Source: a virus. From it: 64,000 nucleotides of DNA. This document shows positions 5,223 through 60,386 of the stretch, piece after piece (position 1 is the stretch's first letter; every line of letters starts with the position of its first letter). The notes beneath the pieces are model-generated. The model saw nothing but the letters and a program-made list of their open reading frames with translations, was not told the DNA's origin and made no database searches. The translations under genes and the position numbers were made by a program. The DNA lies in IMG/VR virus record IMGVR_UViG_3300045988_184134; one strand, 5' to 3'.

Positions 5223-5996
5223 CTAAGCAGACAGCGTGGCTCTGACGACATAGCGTTGGTTTGTGGTTTGGTAGTATCCGAACGGATAGCAGGTATACAT
5301 CACGAGCCGGTCGGTGGTGTCCGAAAGGTCCACAAGAATGGTTCCATCATCGGCCACCACAGTGCCCGCGTCTGCCGTTACCGTTCCCGGCCTGGCAGAA
5401 TCTACCGTATATACGTATTGTCCGTAGTCTGTAGTGACCACAAATTCGTCACCAATACTTACGTATTGAAGCAAAGCCAAAGTGCTGTCGTTATGGGAGC
5501 AAAGAAGATGACAACCACCGTAGCCTACCTGATAGGAGCCTGCGTACTGATATACACCGCTGCGGCTGTCGAGGAGAGCTTGGTCATCGCCCCAGATAAG
5601 GGAAGCGTTGATACCTACGCTGCTGCATGAGACTGTCCCGTAGGAAGCGCCATACGTGGCAGGCACCACATCACCCCATACGCTGGTCGTGAGTGGAGCC
5701 GGAGTATCTGTAGGGACCGGTATTGGTGCTTCTGTCGGTTCAGGCGTCTGTGTAGGAGTAGGCTCTGGTGCAGCTGTTGGTTTCGACAAAGGAGCATGAG
5801 GTGTGGGTTCCGGGATGCTGTCGGTGCTTAGATAAATCGCATCATTCGCTGTCTCAGCCGTTGCCGCTGATTCCGTTGTGCTGGCAAAAGAGTCTGGTGG
5901 TACTGATACGGGAGTAGATGCACTACTCGCGCAAGCTGTGGCAAAGGTCAGTACGCCTACTGCCACAGCAGTTATCACTGCTTTTGTCCGTCTCAT
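5223..5996 (-). CDS. sortase-family protein (secreted/lipoprotein, Pro/Thr-rich linker)
   Basis: N-terminal signal/lipobox (FATAC); PT-rich linker. C-terminal domain carries the sortase signature order: His (GGCHLL), Y.Y.V, TLxTC-like LVMYTCYPF, and Arg in RYVVRA. Confidence 0.5.
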   Translation of the reverse strand: MRRTKAVITAVAVGVLTFATACASSASTPVSVPPDSFASTTESAATAETANDAIYLSTDSIPEPTPHAPLSKPTAAPEPTPTQTPEPTEAPIPVPTDTPAPLTTSVWGDVVPATYGASYGTVSCSSVGINASLIWGDDQALLDSRSGVYQYAGSYQVGYGGCHLLCSHNDSTLALLQYVSIGDEFVVTTDYGQYVYTVDSARPGTVTADAGTVVADDGTILVDLSDTTDRLVMYTCYPFGYYQTTNQRYVVRATLSA

Positions 5997-6038
5997 ATAA
6001 CAAGTCCTTTCTGGTCGTTAGTAAAAATCAAAGCTGCC

Positions 6039-6704
6039 TCAATGCTTAACGAATCGAGGCAGCTTTTTGGCAACGGACATGATAAGCCATTTTTGCGTTT
6101 CTTCTGAGAGTTGGTGCGGTTTGCACTCTACCTTCTTGCGGATACCATAGGTGCTTTCACCGTCATAGTAAATCAGGACACCGATGCCATCGGGAATTTC
6201 GCCTTTCACTTTTTTATAGAGAGCCGTCGGCATAGCATAGTAGTTGCAATGCCCTACAAAGTTGTGCCCGTGGTCAGAGTGAAAGTCCCCTACTGAGATT
6301 TTAATTTCTACACAGGTGATGACGGTATCAATCGTGTAGAGATGCTGTGTCTTATACAACCTACAGAACCGCTCGGTGCAAGGTTCGTTGCGAAAATTCC
6401 AGTTGGAGATGTCCTTCGGACAATTCACTTCCTGCGTCCATTGTTCGATAGACGGCATAACGAGGTCTTTATCCTCGTCGGAGTACATCGACAATTTGCA
6501 AGTTCCACACTTTGTCTCAGAAGTAAAACACTCCTGCACACGGACGAAATCTACAAGCCCAGAGCGTGTCGTGCCGCACTCCACAGGCACTTCAAGAGCA
6601 TCGAAGCCCTGGCGGAATGTATCCGTTCTATACCCGCCGTAGTTGGTTGGATTCCAGTTATGGAGCGCCACCTCAATTTCGCGGGTCAATTGTGTTTTAG
6701 CCAC
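6039..6704 (-). CDS. Cys-rich hypothetical protein, possible PD-(D/E)xK-like nuclease
   Basis: Candidate D…E-x-K arrangement (LVDFVRV … VITCVEIKIS) and several CxxC pairs; weak. Confidence 0.35.
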   Translation of the reverse strand: MAKTQLTREIEVALHNWNPTNYGGYRTDTFRQGFDALEVPVECGTTRSGLVDFVRVQECFTSETKCGTCKLSMYSDEDKDLVMPSIEQWTQEVNCPKDISNWNFRNEPCTERFCRLYKTQHLYTIDTVITCVEIKISVGDFHSDHGHNFVGHCNYYAMPTALYKKVKGEIPDGIGVLIYYDGESTYGIRKKVECKPHQLSEETQKWLIMSVAKKLPRFVKH

Positions 6705-8698: not shown

Positions 8699-8899
8699 CT
8701 ACTCAACCTGAAGCACTGCCTGCATTGAGGTGTGCTGTTTCCGCTTTGCACGTGAAACGGCATGCTGCCTGACCGCCTGGCGGATGGCTGCGTTTGTGTG
8801 TTGGATGCTGGCGGTTTCCTCACGCGAAAAGTTTTTGTCCGTATTTCCTTGAAGATTAGACTCAGTTACAGCCTTTGCAAACTTAATAGATGTCGTCAT
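8699..8899 (-). CDS. small basic protein (66 aa)
   Basis: Internal ATG at 8899 preceded by GGAGG-CAGCT; trimmed from ORF-track 8699..8935. Confidence 0.3.
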   Translation of the reverse strand: MTTSIKFAKAVTESNLQGNTDKNFSREETASIQHTNAAIRQAVRQHAVSRAKRKQHTSMQAVLQVE

Positions 8900-9683
8900 A
8901 GCTGCCTCCGATTCCGGCCCAAAGAGCTTCATCACTCAAGTCGTTGCGAGGGCACTTGATAATGCCCGCTTCTCTTAAAATTTGTCTTGCTTCCTTTGGC
9001 GTTAAGCCGTATTGCTTGGCGAGATTCGATAGAGACTGATTTGGGATAGCTCTGGCTTGTGTAATCAATCGCCTTTTCTTTTCTGTCCAATCGATTGCTA
9101 AGCTCTTGTTTTTTGGAGCTGAGAGAGCGGTTCTTTCAAGGTCTTTTTCGAGGTCTTTTTGGTATTTTTTTGCGGCCGCCTGAATGCCGCTGACCGTCAT
9201 TCCCCATTTATCAGCAATCTTTTTATAAGACATGCCACTGATGTAGTCTTCATATATTTGTTTGTTTCTGGCGTGCTTTTCCTGAACATCTTTCTGGCGA
9301 TAGAGGCGCGTCTTCGCCAAACCTTCACGCTCTTTTTGATACTTTTTCACGATTGACCGAACGCAGCTACTGGTAACGCCCCATTTCTCCGCTATTTTGA
9401 TGCAAGACGCACCACTTATAAACTCTTCATAAATTTGCTTGTTTCTGGTATGTTTTGCCTGTGCATTTTTCTGCCAGTCAAGGCGTGTCTTCGTTAAACC
9501 ATATTTGGGGTCAGAACGTAGAATTTCGACAATTCTATAGCAAGAAAGGCTATATTTGTCCGCCAACTCCAAGACACATACACCATCCATATAATCTCTG
9601 TAAATGGCGTCATTGCGTTCTTTCAAAGATTCATAGACGCCGTTATTCTTTGCCTTCATCATAGTATCGCTGCTTCTCATCAC
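8883..9683 (-). CDS. transcription regulator with four tandem HTH repeats (sigma-70 region-4 / HTH_23-like)
   Basis: Repeated units YRDYMDGVCVLELADKYSLS / YEEFISGASCIKIAEKWGVTSS / YEDYISGMSYKKIADKWGMTVS / SLSNLAKQYGLTPKEARQIL. Confidence 0.55.
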   Translation of the reverse strand: MMRSSDTMMKAKNNGVYESLKERNDAIYRDYMDGVCVLELADKYSLSCYRIVEILRSDPKYGLTKTRLDWQKNAQAKHTRNKQIYEEFISGASCIKIAEKWGVTSSCVRSIVKKYQKEREGLAKTRLYRQKDVQEKHARNKQIYEDYISGMSYKKIADKWGMTVSGIQAAAKKYQKDLEKDLERTALSAPKNKSLAIDWTEKKRRLITQARAIPNQSLSNLAKQYGLTPKEARQILREAGIIKCPRNDLSDEALWAGIGGSYDDIY

Positions 9684-28131: not shown

Positions 28132-28165
28132 AAAAAAGCAGCCACCTCCCGAAGGAAGCGGCTGC
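28132..28165 (-). terminator. intrinsic terminator of 28182..29066
   Basis: GCAGCCGCTTCCTTCGGGAGGTGGCTGC plus U6 on the minus strand. Confidence 0.6.
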
Positions 28166-29233: not shown

Positions 29234-29734
29234 TCACAGTGCAGCCAGATAGTGAATCGCCATCTTTGCAAACCCGATAGCAGATACAAGGCACCATCCT
29301 GCTTTTCCAGCCCAGATAACCTTTGTATAGATGGGTAATACCTTTCGGACCGGCTCCAATTTCCCGAATGCAAGAGGAATTGCAGATACCATCAGCAGCG
29401 AAATATCAAACGCTAAACAAACAAATACAGTTAAACAGTAGTTCAGCATGAGTTGAGCTTCGACCTTATTGACTTCAATTAAGCGCAAAGCCAACAAAGC
29501 AAATGCCGTTGAAATCACACAGCTAATGACAAGGATTCGTACCGTATGGTTCAGAGTATCCTCGGGTGATAGGTATTTTCTTTTGCCGCAGCAATAGGTT
29601 ACTTCTTGGAAGGCTTTACGCCCAAAATACAAGTTATAAACACCACTTGCGGCAAAAAGGATAGCAGTCACAAAGAACAGCGCCGCTCTGCAAATATCAA
29701 CGATACCCATAGGAATCAGAAGGAGAACTTGCAC
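29234..29734 (-). CDS. multi-pass membrane protein (166 aa)
   Basis: Four or five hydrophobic segments. Confidence 0.45.
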   Translation of the reverse strand: MQVLLLIPMGIVDICRAALFFVTAILFAASGVYNLYFGRKAFQEVTYCCGKRKYLSPEDTLNHTVRILVISCVISTAFALLALRLIEVNKVEAQLMLNYCLTVFVCLAFDISLLMVSAIPLAFGKLEPVRKVLPIYTKVIWAGKAGWCLVSAIGFAKMAIHYLAAL

Positions 29735-30603
29735 TCACGGCGCTCGCGGCCATTGCCGCACCAATAGTGCCGCCAGGTGGGAGCCTTACCGTTCGCTTCC
29801 TTCTTGTAACGCTCCATCAGATAATGGCCCACCACAAAGGTCTTGATATTGACTTTCTTGGTCTGGCCCTTGAACGTAAAGACAGGACGTTCGTCCTTTT
29901 TCGGGCTGTCCAGACGAATCTCCACGCCTTTGCTGGCAAGGTAGTAGGCACACAGCATTGCGAGACGGACATAGGGCGTGCCTTCGCCGTAAACAGACGG
30001 GATAGCGTCCAGCGTTTCAGGAATAGTGATGTCATCTTTATCGCGGGTCGAAGATGCCTTTTCGATGTACTGTTTCGTGCTGCGAGTCGCCTCCGTCAAG
30101 CTCTGACCCTCCTTAATCCAAGCGGGAAGGGACAGGAACGCGAAGTTCTCCTTCTCGTTCTGGACGGGGCCGACAAGGACGATGCCAACGAAGGTGTCAT
30201 CCGTCTTTGTATCGAACTCGATATGCACGAACATGCCGCAGTAGTCCACGCTGTTGTACAGAGGCACATAGAAGTTCTTGAACGGCAGGCGCTCCAGCAC
30301 CTCGCGATGGAGAGTGAGGTCATCGGTATCCATCAGCAGTTCCAGAAAATCCTTGCCGAAATCGTAGATGACCTTGGTCTTGTTCCAGTTGGCGATGGTG
30401 TAGCACGGGAAAATCTGGGCAGCCAGCACCTTTTCAAATCCAGGCTGCTGCATCTGCTGGGCAACACGCAGGCACTGAAGCGTAGCGCTCTTGGTGAATT
30501 CGTCCAGCGTCTTGCCGCAGGGGTCCTCAAAATCGAAGCCGGTACGGGTCGAGCGAGTAACGGCATTGGCGGTGAGTGCGATACGAACCTGTTCAGAAGT
30601 CAT
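29716..30603 (-). CDS. hypothetical protein (295 aa)
   Basis: GGAGGA RBS. Confidence 0.5.
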   Translation of the reverse strand: MTSEQVRIALTANAVTRSTRTGFDFEDPCGKTLDEFTKSATLQCLRVAQQMQQPGFEKVLAAQIFPCYTIANWNKTKVIYDFGKDFLELLMDTDDLTLHREVLERLPFKNFYVPLYNSVDYCGMFVHIEFDTKTDDTFVGIVLVGPVQNEKENFAFLSLPAWIKEGQSLTEATRSTKQYIEKASSTRDKDDITIPETLDAIPSVYGEGTPYVRLAMLCAYYLASKGVEIRLDSPKKDERPVFTFKGQTKKVNIKTFVVGHYLMERYKKEANGKAPTWRHYWCGNGRERRECKFSF

Positions 30604-33293: not shown

Positions 33294-34978
33294 TTATTTG
33301 TTGGGGCCCGTCTTCTTTTTATACGGATTGGTTTTGTTGGTGGTAGCATGCTTCTCAGCTGCCTTGGCGTGAGCATCCATGATGGCCTTTTCCTCGTCCG
33401 TAAAATCGGGACGGAAAGAAGTTTTATCTTCGCCGGTGATAGGGTCTTTCTCATGGAACATCCAACCATCTTCGACACGCTCGGAGGTGATGTGAGATTT
33501 TGGCTCGTCCAACTCCACACCATCGATATGGATGTTGCGGTCCGTCTTAGCCTGGATGCTATTGGCACGAACAATCTCACCCATGTCGATACCGGTTGCC
33601 TCCTTCACCGTCTGCATGGTCTGGGCCATGAGCACCGGGACGTTACCAGACACACCGGATACGCCGGAAGCATCACCACCGATGATAGACACCTTGTCGA
33701 TGCTGGACAGGGGCTGGGCCACGCTCTTGGCGATGTCAGGCAGAACCTTGATAAGCATTTCGGCAACAGCTGCGTCGTTGTACTGTTTGTAGGCTTCGGC
33801 TTTCTGCTTCATAGCCTCTGCCTCAGCCAGACCTTTCTGGCGAATGGCTTCAGCCTCAGCCTTACCGACCATCTCGATGCCTTCTGCTTCCTGCTGCTTA
33901 GCGAACTTTTGCGCTTCGGCTGCACGCTCCGCCTCGTATTTTTTGGCTTCTGCTTCTTTCTGACGGCGATAAAGGTCTGCATCAGCCTGTTTACGGACTT
34001 CTGCGTCCAGTTTACGCTGCTGGACTTCGGCTTCCTGCGCAGCAAGGTCAACCATCTTCTTCTGCTTGGCAATCTCTGCGTCAGCCTCAGCTTCTTTGAT
34101 TTCCTTGGCACGGAGGTTCATCTGGATACGACCGGCAGCATCTGCGTCGGCCGCAGCCTTGTCAGCTTCTGCCTTCAGCTTTGCCTTGGCAAGCTGCAAC
34201 TCGTTGTTGCGCTGTGCGATAGCGGTCTGGGCTTCAACTTCCTTGGCGTTCGCTGCCATCTCAGCATCTGCTTTGGCACATGCCACATCGCGAGCAGCCT
34301 GGGCACGGGCAATCTCAGCCTGCTTCTTCACCAGTTCTTCCTGCTCGATACCGATAGCTTCGATGACACCGTGATTGTGGCCCTGTGCATCAATCGCGTC
34401 CCTAATGTCTTGAACATTGAAGGTCACGACCTCAAGGCCCATCTTGGCGAGGTCTGGACGAGCGTTCTCAATGACGCTCAGTGCCATCTGCTTGCGGTTT
34501 GTCAGAATCTGGTCAACGGTCATGTCGGAGACAATCTCACGCAGGTTGCCCTGCAGAACGTCATTGACCTTGTCGTTGATGCCCTGCTCGTTCATGCCAA
34601 GAAAGTTTGAGATAGCTGCCTGCTGGCGGGACATGATATACGCCTTGGCGTCCTTCAGACCAGATGCTTTGACCTCATCGTCCAGCACAGTGGAGTTCTC
34701 ACTGTAGACCTGAATCGTTACGACAGAATCAGCGACACGCCATTCTGAGTCTTAACGCCTGTTTCCGGGGTCTTGACATCAATCTTCAGAAGCCGCATGT
34801 TCAGTTTGTCTGCTCGTTGCAAGACAGGAAGCACAAACGTGCCTTTACCGGATACTACTTTTGGCTTTGACAACCCAAAGCCGGTCACGACGATAGCCTC
34901 CGTCGGAGGGGCCTTCTTGTAGCACAGAAAGCCGAAGATGATAATAAGGACTGCTACAATCCCGATGATAAGCGCCAT
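33294..34978 (-). pseudogene. flotillin/SPFH (YqiK/FloA-like) gene interrupted by a 1-nt frameshift near 34735
   Basis: N-terminal fragment 34718..34978 (TM helix plus …VVSGKGTFVLPVLQRADKLNMRLLKIDVKTPETGVKTQNGVS) and C-terminal ORF 33294..34688 (SPFH core …TFNVQDIRD… plus long Ala/Glu/Lys coiled coil) are in different frames. Reading across them, …NGVS|ADSVVTIQVYSENSTVLDDEVKAS… is continuous apart from one missing base. Confidence 0.65.
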
Positions 34979-35040
34979 ATTCATACTCCTTTCGCTCATC
35001 ACAACCAATGCCTGTCTTTTGTGCAGGCGCGAATACAAAC

Positions 35041-35073
35041 AAAAAAGCTGCGGAAGCAAAAGCAACCACAGCC
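35041..35073 (-). terminator. intrinsic terminator inside the flotillin leader, about 60 nt before its RBS
   Basis: Minus strand GGCTGTGGTTGCTTTTGCTTCCGCAGC plus UUUUUUG. Confidence 0.5.
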
Positions 35074-35220
35074 TTTTATATGAACCACCGGCCCAGGAAA
35101 AAGCCGATGGGGTGAATACAAGCGGAAAGCAAACATGTCAAAGTGAGAGGAAACCACGTCGTACACACCGGCAGGAAGAGGTTAAGACCCGCCGGAACCC
35201 AATTCCGCTTGTACAATTCT

Positions 35221-35260
35221 AATTCTACGCAATTCGCACAAATGCACAAGACATTATTTC
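35221..35260 (-). promoter_or_regulatory. promoter TTGTGC-N16-TAGAAT with TGTGCGAATTG spacer motif; heads the about 230-nt leader of the flotillin gene
   Basis: Sequence match; an upstream intrinsic terminator at 35271..35310 insulates it. Confidence 0.5.
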
Positions 35261-35474
35261 GATAAGCAAAAAGAATCCCCGCTGCTCTTTGCGGGGAAAG
35301 CAGCGGGGTCCGTAAGAAAGGATGTAAGGAACGAGGTGACTGCATGAAAGCAGATAGAACCGTCGGAGAGGGACGGCAAATGTTGTGAGAACTCAGGCAC
35401 TGTACCCTGCCCCGGTTTGCATGGCTGCCATCGACAGCACCGTCGGGTCTTTGTCCTTGCCCTCTATATTGTAT

Positions 35475-35492
35475 TATACCACATGTGGTATA
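35475..35492. promoter_or_regulatory. 18-bp perfect palindrome TATACCACATGTGGTATA (candidate operator)
   Basis: Exact inverted repeat in the non-coding region 35261..35640, next to a TGTATAAT -10-like sequence at 35541..35548. Confidence 0.4.
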
Positions 35493-35642
35493 CAAAATCA
35501 AGATGCAATCCGAAAATATGGCACATTTAGTGCTTTGTCTGTATAATGAGTTGAACTTTTTTGCCTCTGTTTGTGGAGCTCAATCCAAAAAGATAGCCGT
35601 TTTCCAACCTTTTGGGAAATGAGATACACTTTTAACTTTAAC

Positions 35643-36153
35643 TCATTCCTGAAGCAGAGTAATGATGACGGTTCTGGCATTGGAGTAGTCCGAGGCACAG
35701 GTCGTCAGTGCCAACACCTTATAAGCTCCAGCATCTTTTTTGTAGGCTGCGAGTACATCCTGATTTACGTTCTCTGCATTTTCTTCTACATGTCTCGGCA
35801 GCAAAGCCAAACGGTGCGTAGACGCTTTCCAGCTGTTCAGCCGTTAGATAGTAGCGTTCCCGGCCAGCCAGGTGTTCGGGTCCTTGCAGGTCTGTGGTAC
35901 TGCCCACCTTTGCCCAGTCACCATTGATGCAAGCAAAGAAACCGGCAGCCGAGCCGTCCTCGCTTTCAAGTTTGATGTCTGCTTCTTTGTCTTCTTCAAG
36001 GCTGCTTTGCATTGCTATTTCGGAGGTCGCAATTGATGTTGTATTCTGTCCCTTCTTATCATCTGCGTAAGCCGCCGGTATGAAAGGAGTAAACAACTGC
36101 GCGGCGAGCAAAATGGCAGCCGATAAGCTTGTGATTCTTTTTGCGTCTGTCAC
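35643..36153 (-). pseudogene. secreted protein with probable frameshift about 35825 (or assembly indel)
   Basis: GTG start with signal peptide TDAKRITSLSAAILLAAQLFTPFIPAAYA. After …YAPFGFAAET the annotated frame becomes Arg/Cys/Lys-rich junk, while an alternative frame reads protein-like (HVEENAENVNQDVLAAYKKDAGAYKVLALTTCASDYSNARTVIITLLQE-stop). Confidence 0.3.
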
Positions 36154-53795: not shown

Positions 53796-53930
53796 TTTTT
53801 CGTTCTCCCTTCCAAGAGACAGTTAATTAGTGAGCAGAAAACCATATAGGCTTCTGTATCGCAAGATAGCGATTCGGTCAATTTATTCAAAACAGCACCT
53901 AAGGGCAAGGTACTGGTAGTCCGCCAAATA

Positions 53931-54112
53931 AAAAAGAGCGGGCCTCCTGACGAATCAGGAAGTCCGCTCTTGGCAGTTTGTTAAGGGTCAAAGCTCAAGC
54001 AGCCGGATTGGTTCCGGTGGACAACTTACAACATAGTAAGTTTCCAAATTGCTTGCGATAAATGGTATCCATTAACTGCTTTTTATTATAGGCAGTTCGC
54101 AAGCAGCGTCAA
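53931..54112 (-). promoter_or_regulatory. module copy 3 (TTGACG-N16-TATAAT promoter, different leader, same terminator hairpin) upstream of 53472..53795
   Basis: Terminator AGAGCGGACTTCC…GGAGGCCCGCTCT plus U6 at 53931..53970; about 130 nt more of leader before the RBS. Confidence 0.45.
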
Positions 54113-54136: not shown

Positions 54137-55318
54137 TTACTTTTTTGAGGCCTTTACACTAAAGCTGCGACTCGTTTCTCGCTGCGGAATCAGGCAGTCG
54201 TTAAAAGCCTTGGGATACAAAGCCTCCAGCTTTTTCATGTCAACGGAAGTGCGGCTCATGCGAGGCGTGTACTTGATAAGCCATGTAGTGCCATCAACGC
54301 CCGTGGCTTCGCCAGCAACATTCGCACCGAGCGCAGCAGCGAACGGGACAACCATATCCTTGCACTGCTCGTCCAGCAGCTCATACGCCTTTTTAGTGGC
54401 ATCACGTTTGGCCTTCAGGTCGCTGTACTCCTTGCACATCTGAGCAAACTCAGAGCCAAGCAGCATGGCAGGAGCCTTTTTGTTCGCATCCCCCGCGTAC
54501 TTGTGAATCGTGTCCAGCACAGCCTCCGCGTTGCCAATCGGCTCAGGCGGGTTCATAGGAAGAACATGATTCAGCCAGAAGTCATCAATTCCTTCAATGA
54601 TGCGCATTTCCTCGTCGAGGTCACGCTTAATGGTGTTAGCCACGATAGTATCGCGGTCAAACATGCAGACAACAACACATTCCCAGACACCCAGGATTGC
54701 CATATATGTGCGCACCTGATAAATGTAAGGAAGAGGGATGTTGCCGTTCTCCCATTCAGACTTCTTGAAAGAACTCGCCGTTTTGATTTCGACAAGGCAG
54801 TAGGAGCCGTCGGGTTTGCGCATCATACGGTCGATGTTGGCCGTAATATAAGGCTTGCCTGGCATGGCGTAAATGTTCGTATCCGTGATAATTTGGTTGT
54901 ACGGATAGCGCTCAGACAGCCACGCATCCACATACTCCTCGGAGATGTGGCCCCACAGCTTGTTTAATCTCGACTGGGATGTTTCCTGCTCAACGACCAG
55001 AGGCTTCTTGCCCGTCTTGGCATAGTACAGGTCAAGGTTCGTCTTATAGGCATTCGCGCCAAAGATGGCAGAAATGTCAGAGCCTCCAAGGTGAGTGGCA
55101 CGGCGGTCCTGCCACTGGGTATCCGTCAGCGTGCTGGCATCAACCTCAACTTCGGGGCCATTGTAACCATCCGGGTCACAGAACTTGATAGCTTCGGGCG
55201 AAGCCTGGCCCATTGCCTCATTGTAAAGGCTGCGGGTGTACTCCGTCCGAATTTCCCAGTACGGAAGGTGCTGAGCGCACCCCGCGCTGGATTTGTTAGT
55301 ACCGTCATAGCTTGCCAT
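54137..55318 (-). CDS. YqaJ/lambda-Exo-like 5'-3' exonuclease (PD-(D/E)xK)
   Basis: LGGSDISAIFG…, RKPDGSYCLVEIKT (D…E-x-K) and a C-terminal extension. Confidence 0.65.
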   Translation of the reverse strand: MASYDGTNKSSAGCAQHLPYWEIRTEYTRSLYNEAMGQASPEAIKFCDPDGYNGPEVEVDASTLTDTQWQDRRATHLGGSDISAIFGANAYKTNLDLYYAKTGKKPLVVEQETSQSRLNKLWGHISEEYVDAWLSERYPYNQIITDTNIYAMPGKPYITANIDRMMRKPDGSYCLVEIKTASSFKKSEWENGNIPLPYIYQVRTYMAILGVWECVVVCMFDRDTIVANTIKRDLDEEMRIIEGIDDFWLNHVLPMNPPEPIGNAEAVLDTIHKYAGDANKKAPAMLLGSEFAQMCKEYSDLKAKRDATKKAYELLDEQCKDMVVPFAAALGANVAGEATGVDGTTWLIKYTPRMSRTSVDMKKLEALYPKAFNDCLIPQRETSRSFSVKASKK

Positions 55319-57175: not shown

Positions 57176-57751
57176 TTATTGTCCTTTCTGCTGTGCTATA
57201 TCATTGTCTGTGGTTTCGGGAGTTCCAATCGGGATACTATAGTAGACCTTTGAAAGAATGTTATCTCTCGGCACAAAATGTTCATCCCAATAACGTGAAT
57301 CGTATGAGTTATTTCGATTGTCCCCCATCATAAAGTAGCATCCACTGGGTATCTGAAAGGGACCAAAATCCAAATCTTCTGGAGTTTCTCTCAAGTACGG
57401 CTCATCATAGATTTCACCATTGATATAGGTTTGCCCGTGCTTGATTTCAAGAGTGTCTCCCGGCATTCCAACAATACGCTTGGCATATATCTTTGAATTG
57501 CCATCTGCTCTTTTGAAAAGCACGATGTCTCCCCTTTCAGGTTCTTCAAACCAGTAAGTGGCTCTTGCGCTGAAGGAGAAACACGGAGAGGGCAATGTCG
57601 GATACATAGATGCGGTAGGGATAATAGCAGTCAGGAAAACGAACTTGAATAAGATAAATGCAACTGCGAAGCAGATAACGGGGAATCTCCATTCCCGCCA
57701 GAACTGTTTCACCCTTGCGGTGTGCGACTGCACATTGTTATTTTCGTCCAA
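57176..57751 (-). CDS. signal peptidase I (S26 family)
   Basis: Box B ASMYPTL (catalytic Ser), box D KRIVGMPGDT (catalytic Lys), box E GDNRNNSYDSRYW. Confidence 0.8.
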   Translation of the reverse strand: MDENNNVQSHTARVKQFWREWRFPVICFAVAFILFKFVFLTAIIPTASMYPTLPSPCFSFSARATYWFEEPERGDIVLFKRADGNSKIYAKRIVGMPGDTLEIKHGQTYINGEIYDEPYLRETPEDLDFGPFQIPSGCYFMMGDNRNNSYDSRYWDEHFVPRDNILSKVYYSIPIGTPETTDNDIAQQKGQ

Positions 57752-59168: not shown

Positions 59169-60386
59169 TTATGCAGTTACATTTAAATCACGAGGAATAA
59201 ACGGGATATACTTGAATTCCTGTTTTTCCGCGCATTTTACGATACTTTGATTGGCGGGAATGAATGGTCGTAAAGCCTTTCCCTGCGATACTGCAAGGAA
59301 GTAATCATCCACGCCTTTGTAAGCCGTGCCCCAGTTGAAGCGCGTCATAGTGATGCCATAACGAGCTGCAATCGCATAGAGCTTTTTCAGCGCATTGCGA
59401 ACATGCTCATTGCTTTCTCGGTCCGAATCGAAGGCATCAGCCACATGAGTAACGCCCAACGCTTTGAGGTGCTCACAAGTCGCTTCCCATTGGTTAAAGC
59501 AGTTGACTCCAGCAAGGGCAATGTACGGATTCGAGTTACCACTCAGCGTGCAGGCAATGTGAGCTTTCAAAGCTCCTTCCGTGATGTACACGGTCTTGTC
59601 CTTTGCGCATTTGGGCATAACTCCCGGAATACCATAGCTTGCGATGTTTTTGGCGCTACACCCGTTCTCATAACCTGGAGATGAGAACCAACGATAACGC
59701 TTGTCACCATCATCGAACCGAATCTGCATACCAACAATCTGATTATCGGCATTAAAGTACGGGATGAAGAATCCGGGCTTCGTACAAGCAGAGAAGGCTT
59801 TTCCGTTTTTCTCATAGAAGCCGGGAATTCCAATAAAGGAAATCTTCAGCTTCTTGAGTCTCACGAATACGCCAGCCCAGTGTTCAGGAACAGAACGATA
59901 CAGGCATCGGTCGATGACCTCGTCCGTCAAACCTCGCTTGCGCAGATTTTCTCGATGCTCAGGATTCAGAGTCAGCTCATTCAGAACCGCTCTATACACC
60001 TTATCGAGTTCTGCATCAGGACGTGCCTGTAAGCTGAGGTCAATGTCCGATTCCGGCCTCATCACAATTTTACATTTTGTGTGCGCTGGTTTGCCGCTGA
60101 GGTCCATCGAAATGGCATGCTTGGCGAACTGTCTGTCGTTAGGGTCAATTCCCGTAAACATGCAGTAAAGGTCAATCATGCCGCCACTGTATGGGCATCC
60201 GCTGCAACAATGGAAGCAGTTGTACTGTCCCTTTGCAACATTGACGCTGAAATAGACTGGTTGCTTATTGCGCCCGCATACGCCATGCGGGCACTGCACC
60301 TCTATTTCACCGGCACGCGTAACCTTTCCACGGGTCTTGGCCCCCACAAGGTCCAAAACCGTGTCCATAGAAAAGCTCCATGCCAC
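59169..60386 (-). CDS. DnaG-type DNA primase (CHC2 zinc finger + TOPRIM)
   Basis: CPHGVCGRN…YNCFHCCSGCPYSGG zinc finger; TOPRIM Glu (TVYITEGALKAHIA) and DxD (ADAFDSDRESNEH). Confidence 0.8.
   Translation of the reverse strand: MAWSFSMDTVLDLVGAKTRGKVTRAGEIEVQCPHGVCGRNKQPVYFSVNVAKGQYNCFHCCSGCPYSGGMIDLYCMFTGIDPNDRQFAKHAISMDLSGKPAHTKCKIVMRPESDIDLSLQARPDAELDKVYRAVLNELTLNPEHRENLRKRGLTDEVIDRCLYRSVPEHWAGVFVRLKKLKISFIGIPGFYEKNGKAFSACTKPGFFIPYFNADNQIVGMQIRFDDGDKRYRWFSSPGYENGCSAKNIASYGIPGVMPKCAKDKTVYITEGALKAHIACTLSGNSNPYIALAGVNCFNQWEATCEHLKALGVTHVADAFDSDRESNEHVRNALKKLYAIAARYGITMTRFNWGTAYKGVDDYFLAVSQGKALRPFIPANQSIVKCAEKQEFKYIPFIPRDLNVTA

Follow-up and report, generated by a model that had tools for sequence, protein, structure and literature searches.

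A conserved, terminator-containing leader RNA upstream of cargo genes in a mobile element, probably from gut Firmicutes

The flotillin locus and the element that carries it

The window, i.e., the whole stretch of 64,000 nucleotides analyzed here, contains on its minus strand a flotillin gene, the structured leader that precedes it, and a second structured RNA, named RNA-X, directly upstream of the leader. The window proteins include a Y-family polymerase, a YpsA/SLOG protein, and a UvrD-like helicase, and many others have no family assignment. Genes for a sortase (5223-5996), an S26 signal peptidase (57176-57751), a DUF3854/primase-like protein (59169-60386), and a YqaJ exonuclease (54137-55318), all on the minus strand, are indicative of a plasmid or conjugative-type element from a Gram-positive host. 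On plasmids, the polymerase has its nearest relatives in Oscillospiraceae, Monoglobus, and Subdoligranulum. Judging from this gene content and from the polymerase’s plasmid relatives, the window is part of a mobile element, probably of gut Firmicutes. No relaxase, type IV secretion, or phage structural genes were recognized in the window, and no antiterminator protein family was found among its approximately 65 ORFs with Pfam and PHROGs, a search that covered the window as part of a larger element with many ORFs lacking a family. The only regulator seen was a Mor-family activator of 266 amino acids (8883-9683, minus strand), which has several further HTH repeats and corresponds to the PHROG “late transcriptional activator.” This Mor-like protein might regulate the repeated promoters described below.

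Downstream of the leader, the two ORF pieces of the gene gave Band_7 and Flot domains, which identify the product as a flotillin. The spacer behind the leader (34976..35040, minus strand) contains the RBS GGAG (34989-34986) and the flotillin ATG (34978-34976). The leader terminator stands 62 nt ahead of this start codon, and no sigma-70-like promoter was found between the two. When compared to L067 and L089, the flotillin gene of the window has a 7-nt deletion (34731-34732, minus strand) that divides it into ORFs of 86 and 464 amino acids; the split reflects either pseudogene formation or an error of assembly. In the close relative L088, the flotillin gene has another deletion, which is in-frame. 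Flotillin homologues of 95-99% identity are present on long metagenomic contigs, of which L088 and L089 are syntenic with the window and have a leader of approximately 94% identity. The closest flotillins from reference genomes (77-79% identity; L001, L002) are preceded by unrelated DNA, which indicates that the leader moves together with the element rather than with the flotillin gene.

The transcription unit is approximately 7 kb long and reaches from flotillin to a terminator with a 12-bp stem and T6 (28138..28165, minus strand), located just upstream of another promoter of the same family (28116-28089). Between 34978 and 28165 on the minus strand, the terminator scan detected no further long-stemmed, G+C-rich terminator with a clean T-run; there is one weak terminator-like site inside the unit (28708-28692, 6 pairs). 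A gene for a protein of 295 amino acids within this operon is syntenic in the window (29716-30603, minus strand), L088 (8311-9198), and L089 (8344-9231). Its copies in L088 and L089 bear a precomputed AcrVA2-like (anti-CRISPR) Pfam label, and the window copy has no Pfam match.

Anatomy of the leader, its promoter family, and RNA-X

The preliminary description of this locus had claimed a promoter, a long-range helix, a hairpin (P1 and P2 below), a terminator followed by six U residues, and an RBS, and all of them were found again on the minus strand in the same places. The promoter (35222..35249, minus strand), as read from the sequence, consists of a −35 element TTGTGC (35249-35244), a 16-nt spacer with the conserved GTGCGAATTG, and a −10 element TAGAAT (35227-35222). 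It was omitted by the sigma-70 scan because its −35 element has only 3 of 6 matches. Transcription is predicted to start at approximately 35215, within the TTGTAC start region (35216-35211). In the fold, this region is continuous with the 5′ arm of P1, and the whole segment (GUACAAGCGGAA, 35203..35216, minus strand) is invariant in 38 of 38 distinct family members. P1 itself is a long-range helix of 10-12 bp, in which GUACAAGCGG(AA) (35214-35203) pairs with (UU)CCGCUUGUAU (35127-35116), a partner segment approximately 90 nt downstream of the first bases of the RNA. This 3′ arm of P1 (UUCCGCUUGUAU, 35116..35127, minus strand) is seen both in the fold and in the alignments. Behind the 5′ arm, the fold contains a conserved GGG junction (35200-35198) and the P2 hairpin of 8 bp, including one G·U pair (CCGGCGGG, 35195-35188, with CCUGCCGG, 35175-35168), which has a 12-nt loop with AACCUCUU. 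Lineage comparison delimits a variable P3 region with the conserved junction ACAUGUUUGC (35128..35167, minus strand); its sequence and length differ among lineages, and a CAUGUyUGC motif is retained. The P4 hairpin (CCAUCGGCUU, loop UUUCCU, GGGCCGGUGG; 35085..35110, minus strand), which was absent from the preliminary description, follows. The last hairpin is an intrinsic terminator (35041..35077, minus strand), recognized in the sequence and in the fold, with the arms AAAAGGCUGUGG (35077-35066) and CCGCAGC (35053-35047) and the U6 tract (35046-35041). The terminator scan missed it only for its loop of more than 8 nt. The structured leader RNA is thus approximately 176 nt long (35216-35041, minus strand).

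The 251-nt leader folds with −91 kcal/mol, compared with −70.6 ± 4.3 kcal/mol for 200 dinucleotide shuffles (z = −4.76), none of which was as good. Together with the conservation of the leader and the pairing kept in the alignments (see below), this value bears out the earlier view of a structured 5′ leader with an internal terminator. In five representatives covering all lineages, the inner pairs of the terminator have a probability of approximately 1.0; in the window's lineage, the outermost A-U pairs reach 0.6-0.9. In nascent transcripts from which the 3′ arm of the terminator is missing, the 5′ arm has no conserved partner in any lineage. A zipper-type attenuator was considered and rejected, as no stem extension complementary to the terminator was seen in full or nascent leader folds of any lineage. 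A leader-peptide attenuator was rejected as well: the conserved AUG has no Shine-Dalgarno sequence ahead of it, the openness of all three frames is due to the composition of the leader (only 17% A), and an indel of 1 nt gives the window and L088 different frames.

The leader promoter is one of a family of near-identical copies with the consensus TTGnnn-N6-tGCGAAnTG-NN-TAnAAT. Within the window, the 28-nt pattern TTGN9GCGAANTGNNTANAAT matches at 17 sites, exclusively on the minus strand (419, 968, 3467, 4956, 12607, 17923, 18433, 23453, 24142, 28089, 35222, 36216, 51809, 54085, 56691, 58081, and 61478), with a chance expectation of 0.15. Several family promoters contain a GCACAnnTGTGC dyad. An intrinsic terminator lies between promoter and first gene at 10 of the 17, and the succession of promoter, terminator, and gene is therefore common to other units, in line with the earlier suggestion. 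The motif TGTR occurs at the predicted start of 9 of the 10 terminator-bearing promoters vs. 1 of the 7 terminator-less ones (Fisher p = 0.004). The start motif linked to the terminator-bearing family promoters reads TTGTAc (GATAGATA). Among the ten promoter-then-terminator units, the flotillin unit is the longest; the nine others in the window show the same layout of promoter, terminator, and RBS with leaders too short for plausible sRNAs. The unit of promoter 54085 (53800-54112, minus strand) has a long leader of approximately 275 nt up to the RBS and a strong terminator approximately 150 nt past the promoter, and it does not carry the TTGTA start motif. The sigma-70 scan revealed no opposite-strand promoter at the flotillin leader.

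RNA-X (35268..35501, minus strand) forms a unit of its own, with a promoter TTGATT-17-TGgTATAAT (35501-35473), which is near-consensus and has an extended −10 element, a structured RNA of approximately 200 nt, and a 12-bp terminator (35308-35277). Each of the four lineages introduced below has it directly ahead of the leader, and of the 39 pairs predicted in its 5′ domain, 15 show changes on both sides, in a compensatory manner. One of its hairpins has a GAU loop that is conserved, a CU-rich stretch precedes the terminator, and Rfam contains no match to it. A k-mer complementarity search for pairing of RNA-X with the leader gave only matches of 8-9 nt, with no position kept in all lineages; duplex folding of the two RNAs over their whole length was uninformative. 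Upstream of the RNA-X promoter, an inverted repeat is present (TCCCAAAAG..CTTTTTGGA, approximately 35583-35619, minus strand), whose lineage C counterpart is a perfect 11-bp repeat (ATTCCCAAAAG..CTTTTGGGAAT).

Conservation and covariation of the leader

Scanning IMG/VR for the promoter pattern and then applying blastn yielded many further contigs with the leader, and a metagenome scan with a pattern composed of P1, GGG, and P2 brought the total to approximately 100 loci. These metagenomic and IMG/VR loci, mostly from the human gut, fall into four lineages. The preliminary description had made its proposal dependent on conservation in related elements, and the leader is indeed kept in all four lineages. 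The metagenome scan recovered the same four lineages plus chance matches and no more divergent members. Lineage A, represented by the window, comprises a handful of loci with flotillin after the terminator. In lineage B (representative L090, approximately 14 loci), an Mrr_N-domain gene, a gene for 130 amino acids, and flotillin follow, and in lineage B′ (representative L041, approximately 10 loci) a homologous gene of the same type as that of B. Lineage C (representative L010) is the largest, with approximately 73 loci and 29 sequence variants, and here a gene for an unknown protein of 249 amino acids starts approximately 220 nt past the terminator. The genes directly after the leader, i.e., flotillin in A, the Mrr_N-domain protein in B and B′, and the unknown protein in C, are unrelated between lineages. 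The RBS of lineages B and B′ is placed only 10-13 nt past the U-tract. Overall, in A, B, and B′ the gene start or RBS follows the U-tract by approximately 10-60 nt with no promoter between, and this short, promoterless gap implies that the cargo operon depends on read-through of the leader terminator.

In lineage C, approximately 165 nt after the terminator are conserved (L079, 1280-1500, and other loci) and end with GGAGAAGCACACTATGGG, and beyond this point the cargo diverges. A shorter, variably disrupted ORF begins approximately 165 nt past the terminator, and a small gene starting MGWYHVN is retained whole at certain loci and broken at the rest. In L210 (approximately 5855-6050), the lineage C leader is broken after P2 and P3 by unrelated AT-rich DNA, and in L216 (approximately 5250-5680) most of RNA-X is replaced by sequence resembling the end of a transposase gene. 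These two interruptions indicate that the cassette is occasionally hit by insertions.

Independent folds of 19 variants gave the same architecture, consisting of a P1-closed junction with P2 and the variable P3, followed by P4 and the terminator. When lineages A, B, and B′ were aligned with MAFFT (A3), the structure paired 99.4% of cells vs. at most 54% when the 3′ partners are slid, and two pairs changed on both sides. A second alignment (A5) contains 38 distinct members aligned by covariance model R2, and its values are hence model-fitted: 96.8% of cells are paired vs. 36-51% for slid partners, and 16 pairs changed on both sides vs. 2-4 in controls. The covariation score of this model-fitted alignment is 0.431 vs. 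at most 0.111, and none of 500 shuffles reached the observed values. The compensatory changes trace to few independent events, as there are four lineages.

The individual helices contribute differently. P1 is 100% paired and its sequence is invariant except for one-sided changes of the G·U type at four pairs, with no compensatory change, so that its pairing is supported by conservation and the G·U changes alone. In P2, one pair was exchanged between lineages from G-C to A-U; the P2 of lineage C was mis-registered by model R2, and inspected by eye it is fully paired (GGCGGG/CCCGCC). All lineages share the position of P4, with stems that differ in sequence; the hairpin is seen in the independent fold of each variant and has 99.6% of cells paired, with 4 of 7 pairs changed on both sides. 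For the terminator, 11 of 14 pairs changed on both sides, which results from lineage C carrying a different terminator at the same place, and in every lineage the last hairpin leads into a U-tract. A candidate pseudoknot between GGGY in the junction and RCCU in the P2 loop, in which lineages A and C have U-A and lineages B and B′ have C-G, is suggestive only. The G·U pairs would be A·C mismatches on the opposite strand, and the structure therefore belongs to the minus-strand transcript.

Covariance model R2 detected the leader once in the window and at none of 57 other loci, and a scan with P2 only gave chance matches in coding DNA. An Rfam scan, recommended in the preliminary description, returned no Rfam 15 match at gathering thresholds for the whole window, three chance-level matches of at most 17 bits for the region 34700-35700 at E up to 10, and no match for four related loci, in agreement with the earlier remark that no riboswitch class was recognized. 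Similarly, blastn against INPHARED phages and PLSDB plasmids gave no match for the lineage A or the lineage C version, and a search for tRNA and tmRNA found none.

Proposed mechanism and its place among known systems

The reading that we favor tentatively, at a little less than an even chance, is that the leader is a default-off attenuator of a mobile-element cargo operon, in which read-through is brought about by a trans-acting factor. We infer this mechanism, including termination in vivo, the start site, read-through, and the existence and nature of the factor, from the architecture described above. It is proposed that transcription starts at one of the element’s 17 sigma-A-type promoters. 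In the nascent RNA, P1 would close a domain with P2, possibly pseudoknotted, and the variable P3, and the separate P4 and then the terminator would follow. As there is no alternative fold competing with the terminator, the default outcome would be termination, resulting in a short RNA and a silent cargo operon of approximately 7 kb. The operon would be expressed when the trans-acting factor allows polymerase to read through. This factor might be a protein or RNA encoded by the element that recognizes the invariant parts of the leader, i.e., P1, the GGG junction, and the CCU-rich loops of P2 and P4. The other option is a factor modifying RNA polymerase at the shared promoter, which is suggested by the nine other units of the window with the same promoter-then-terminator layout. 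The stable terminated RNA could itself be a functional product. In a broader and rather doubtful extension, the leader, RNA-X, and the ten promoter-then-terminator units would be parts of an undescribed element-wide regulon. A single factor, loaded at the promoter or bound to the leader, might then free all cargo and anti-defense operons together, e.g., on entry into a new host, and the flotillin-type leader would be the most elaborate RNA part of the regulon, binding polymerase or the factor or representing a new ligand-sensing class.

One may also consider that the 176-nt RNA is the product of a stand-alone sRNA gene, a trans-acting regulatory or anti-defense RNA in tandem with RNA-X, and that the downstream genes are expressed by incidental leak. 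Its own promoter and strong terminator, its retention whatever gene follows, its constant position beside another terminated structured RNA, and the distance of approximately 220 nt to the annotated gene in lineage C are in accordance with this idea. However, the cargo operon of A, B, and B′, where the RBS is within 10-60 nt and no promoter intervenes, depends on the leader promoter, nine units share the layout with leaders too short for plausible sRNAs, and no target was identified, so we consider an sRNA gene unlikely. A self-sufficient, cis-acting antiterminator RNA of the put/EAR/canT type would instead bind its own polymerase and make it terminator-resistant, and the terminator would stop only polymerases without the correct leader. 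In put, EAR, and canT (PMC11658703), a conserved structure of several helices is likewise placed between promoter and terminator, and the invariant sequence of P1 and the junctions suggests a conserved partner such as RNA polymerase. Nevertheless, processivity would have no evident use in a 7-kb unit with only the weak site at 28708-28692, the short-leader modules carry terminators behind the same promoter without such an RNA, similarity to EAR or any Rfam family is lacking, and the activity of canT needs 341-452 nt (PMC11658703); this reading appears quite unlikely.

The preliminary description termed the leader “riboswitch- or attenuator-like,” and the second of these terms holds for its architecture. 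In a new class of metabolite or ion riboswitch, P1, P2, and the possible pseudoknot would form the aptamer, and a ligand would control termination. The P1-closed junction with its conserved core and possible pseudoknot does resemble aptamer architecture, the terminator comes after the structured domain, and the leader matches none of the known classes. Yet no conserved antiterminator or anti-antiterminator pairing ties P1 or P4 to the terminator, P4 stands between the putative aptamer and the terminator, the downstream genes are functionally unrelated across lineages, and the motif is found in one mobile-element family behind one promoter type only. With no Rfam family matching either, the riboswitch part of the term is not supported, and such a class seems improbable. 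It is still less probable, and indeed very unlikely, that the element is not an RNA at all and instead is a DNA-level protein-binding or recombination site, a Frpo-like single-strand promoter, or a by-product of composition. The arms of P1 do form an invariant 11-nt inverted repeat without compensatory change, and the unit is situated at the boundary of a conserved module and variable cargo. On the other hand, the G·U pairs and the one-sided changes to G·U fit the transcribed strand only, P2 and P4 covary, the fold has a z-score of −4.76, and the U-tract follows the last hairpin in every lineage. The Frpo-like single-strand DNA promoter was rejected as a separate candidate, with the promoter hexamers outside every hairpin, −35 and −10 upstream of P1, and stems of at most 12 bp.

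If the default-off attenuator is correct, then promoter-proximal terminators govern the accessory genes of uncultured mobile elements that form a family widespread in human-gut metagenomes. The genes concerned include DNA-repair genes and one that is annotated as anti-CRISPR-like in a relative, and the leader would provide a handle on the timing of cargo expression in such elements. The leader and RNA-X are two uncatalogued structured RNAs. No description of the leader RNA family, RNA-X, or the multi-copy promoter-then-terminator layout was found in the searched literature and sequence libraries, whereas regulatory leaders with terminators are as such known from mobile elements.

In the late control region of phage lambda, the constitutive-looking promoter PR′ is followed by the terminator tR′, giving the 6S RNA of approximately 190 nt, and the downstream genes need read-through by Q. 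The units described here share with it the order of promoter and terminator, the expected short RNA, and the need for downstream read-through. The conserved spacer GCGAAyTG sits where Q-binding elements lie, and there is a conserved motif at the transcript start. Unlike in lambda, a protein of the Q family was not found in the window, the final T of the −10-like pause element is missing from the start motif TACAAG, ten units are present instead of one, and the leader RNA is structured and conserved, which is not required in Q systems.

The zipper-type attenuator cATT and the antitermination system conAn (PMC13401043; PMC8191782) have in common with this leader a long structured leader with a terminator, a Gram-positive mobile-element operon, and the attenuation principle. 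In cATT of pLS20, a segment complementary to the terminator, located upstream of a long central stem-loop, extends this central stem (PMC13401043). No such complementarity is conserved in the leader described here, which is 176 nt long vs. 456 nt and precedes cargo genes and not a conjugation operon. Like put of HK022, EAR of Bacillus, and canT of Tn916 (PMC11658703), it is a structured RNA between promoter and terminator, but no sequence or Rfam similarity to them was found, there is no internal terminator of comparable strength to bypass, and antitermination by this leader is putative. Terminator-type riboswitches also place a P1-closed conserved domain and then an intrinsic terminator in a 5′ leader; they differ from it by a mutually exclusive fold, a coherent gene association, and membership in a known class. 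Antisense attenuation, as in pIP501, pT181, and Anti-Q of pCF10, likewise involves a plasmid leader with a terminator and an adjacent small RNA gene. Here, in contrast, RNA-X is on the same strand and non-overlapping, without convincing conserved complementarity, and no promoter was seen on the opposite strand. If the proposed attenuation is true, the leader adds a case to the short list of Gram-positive mobile-element systems of attenuation or antitermination, alongside conAn, cATT, and canT.
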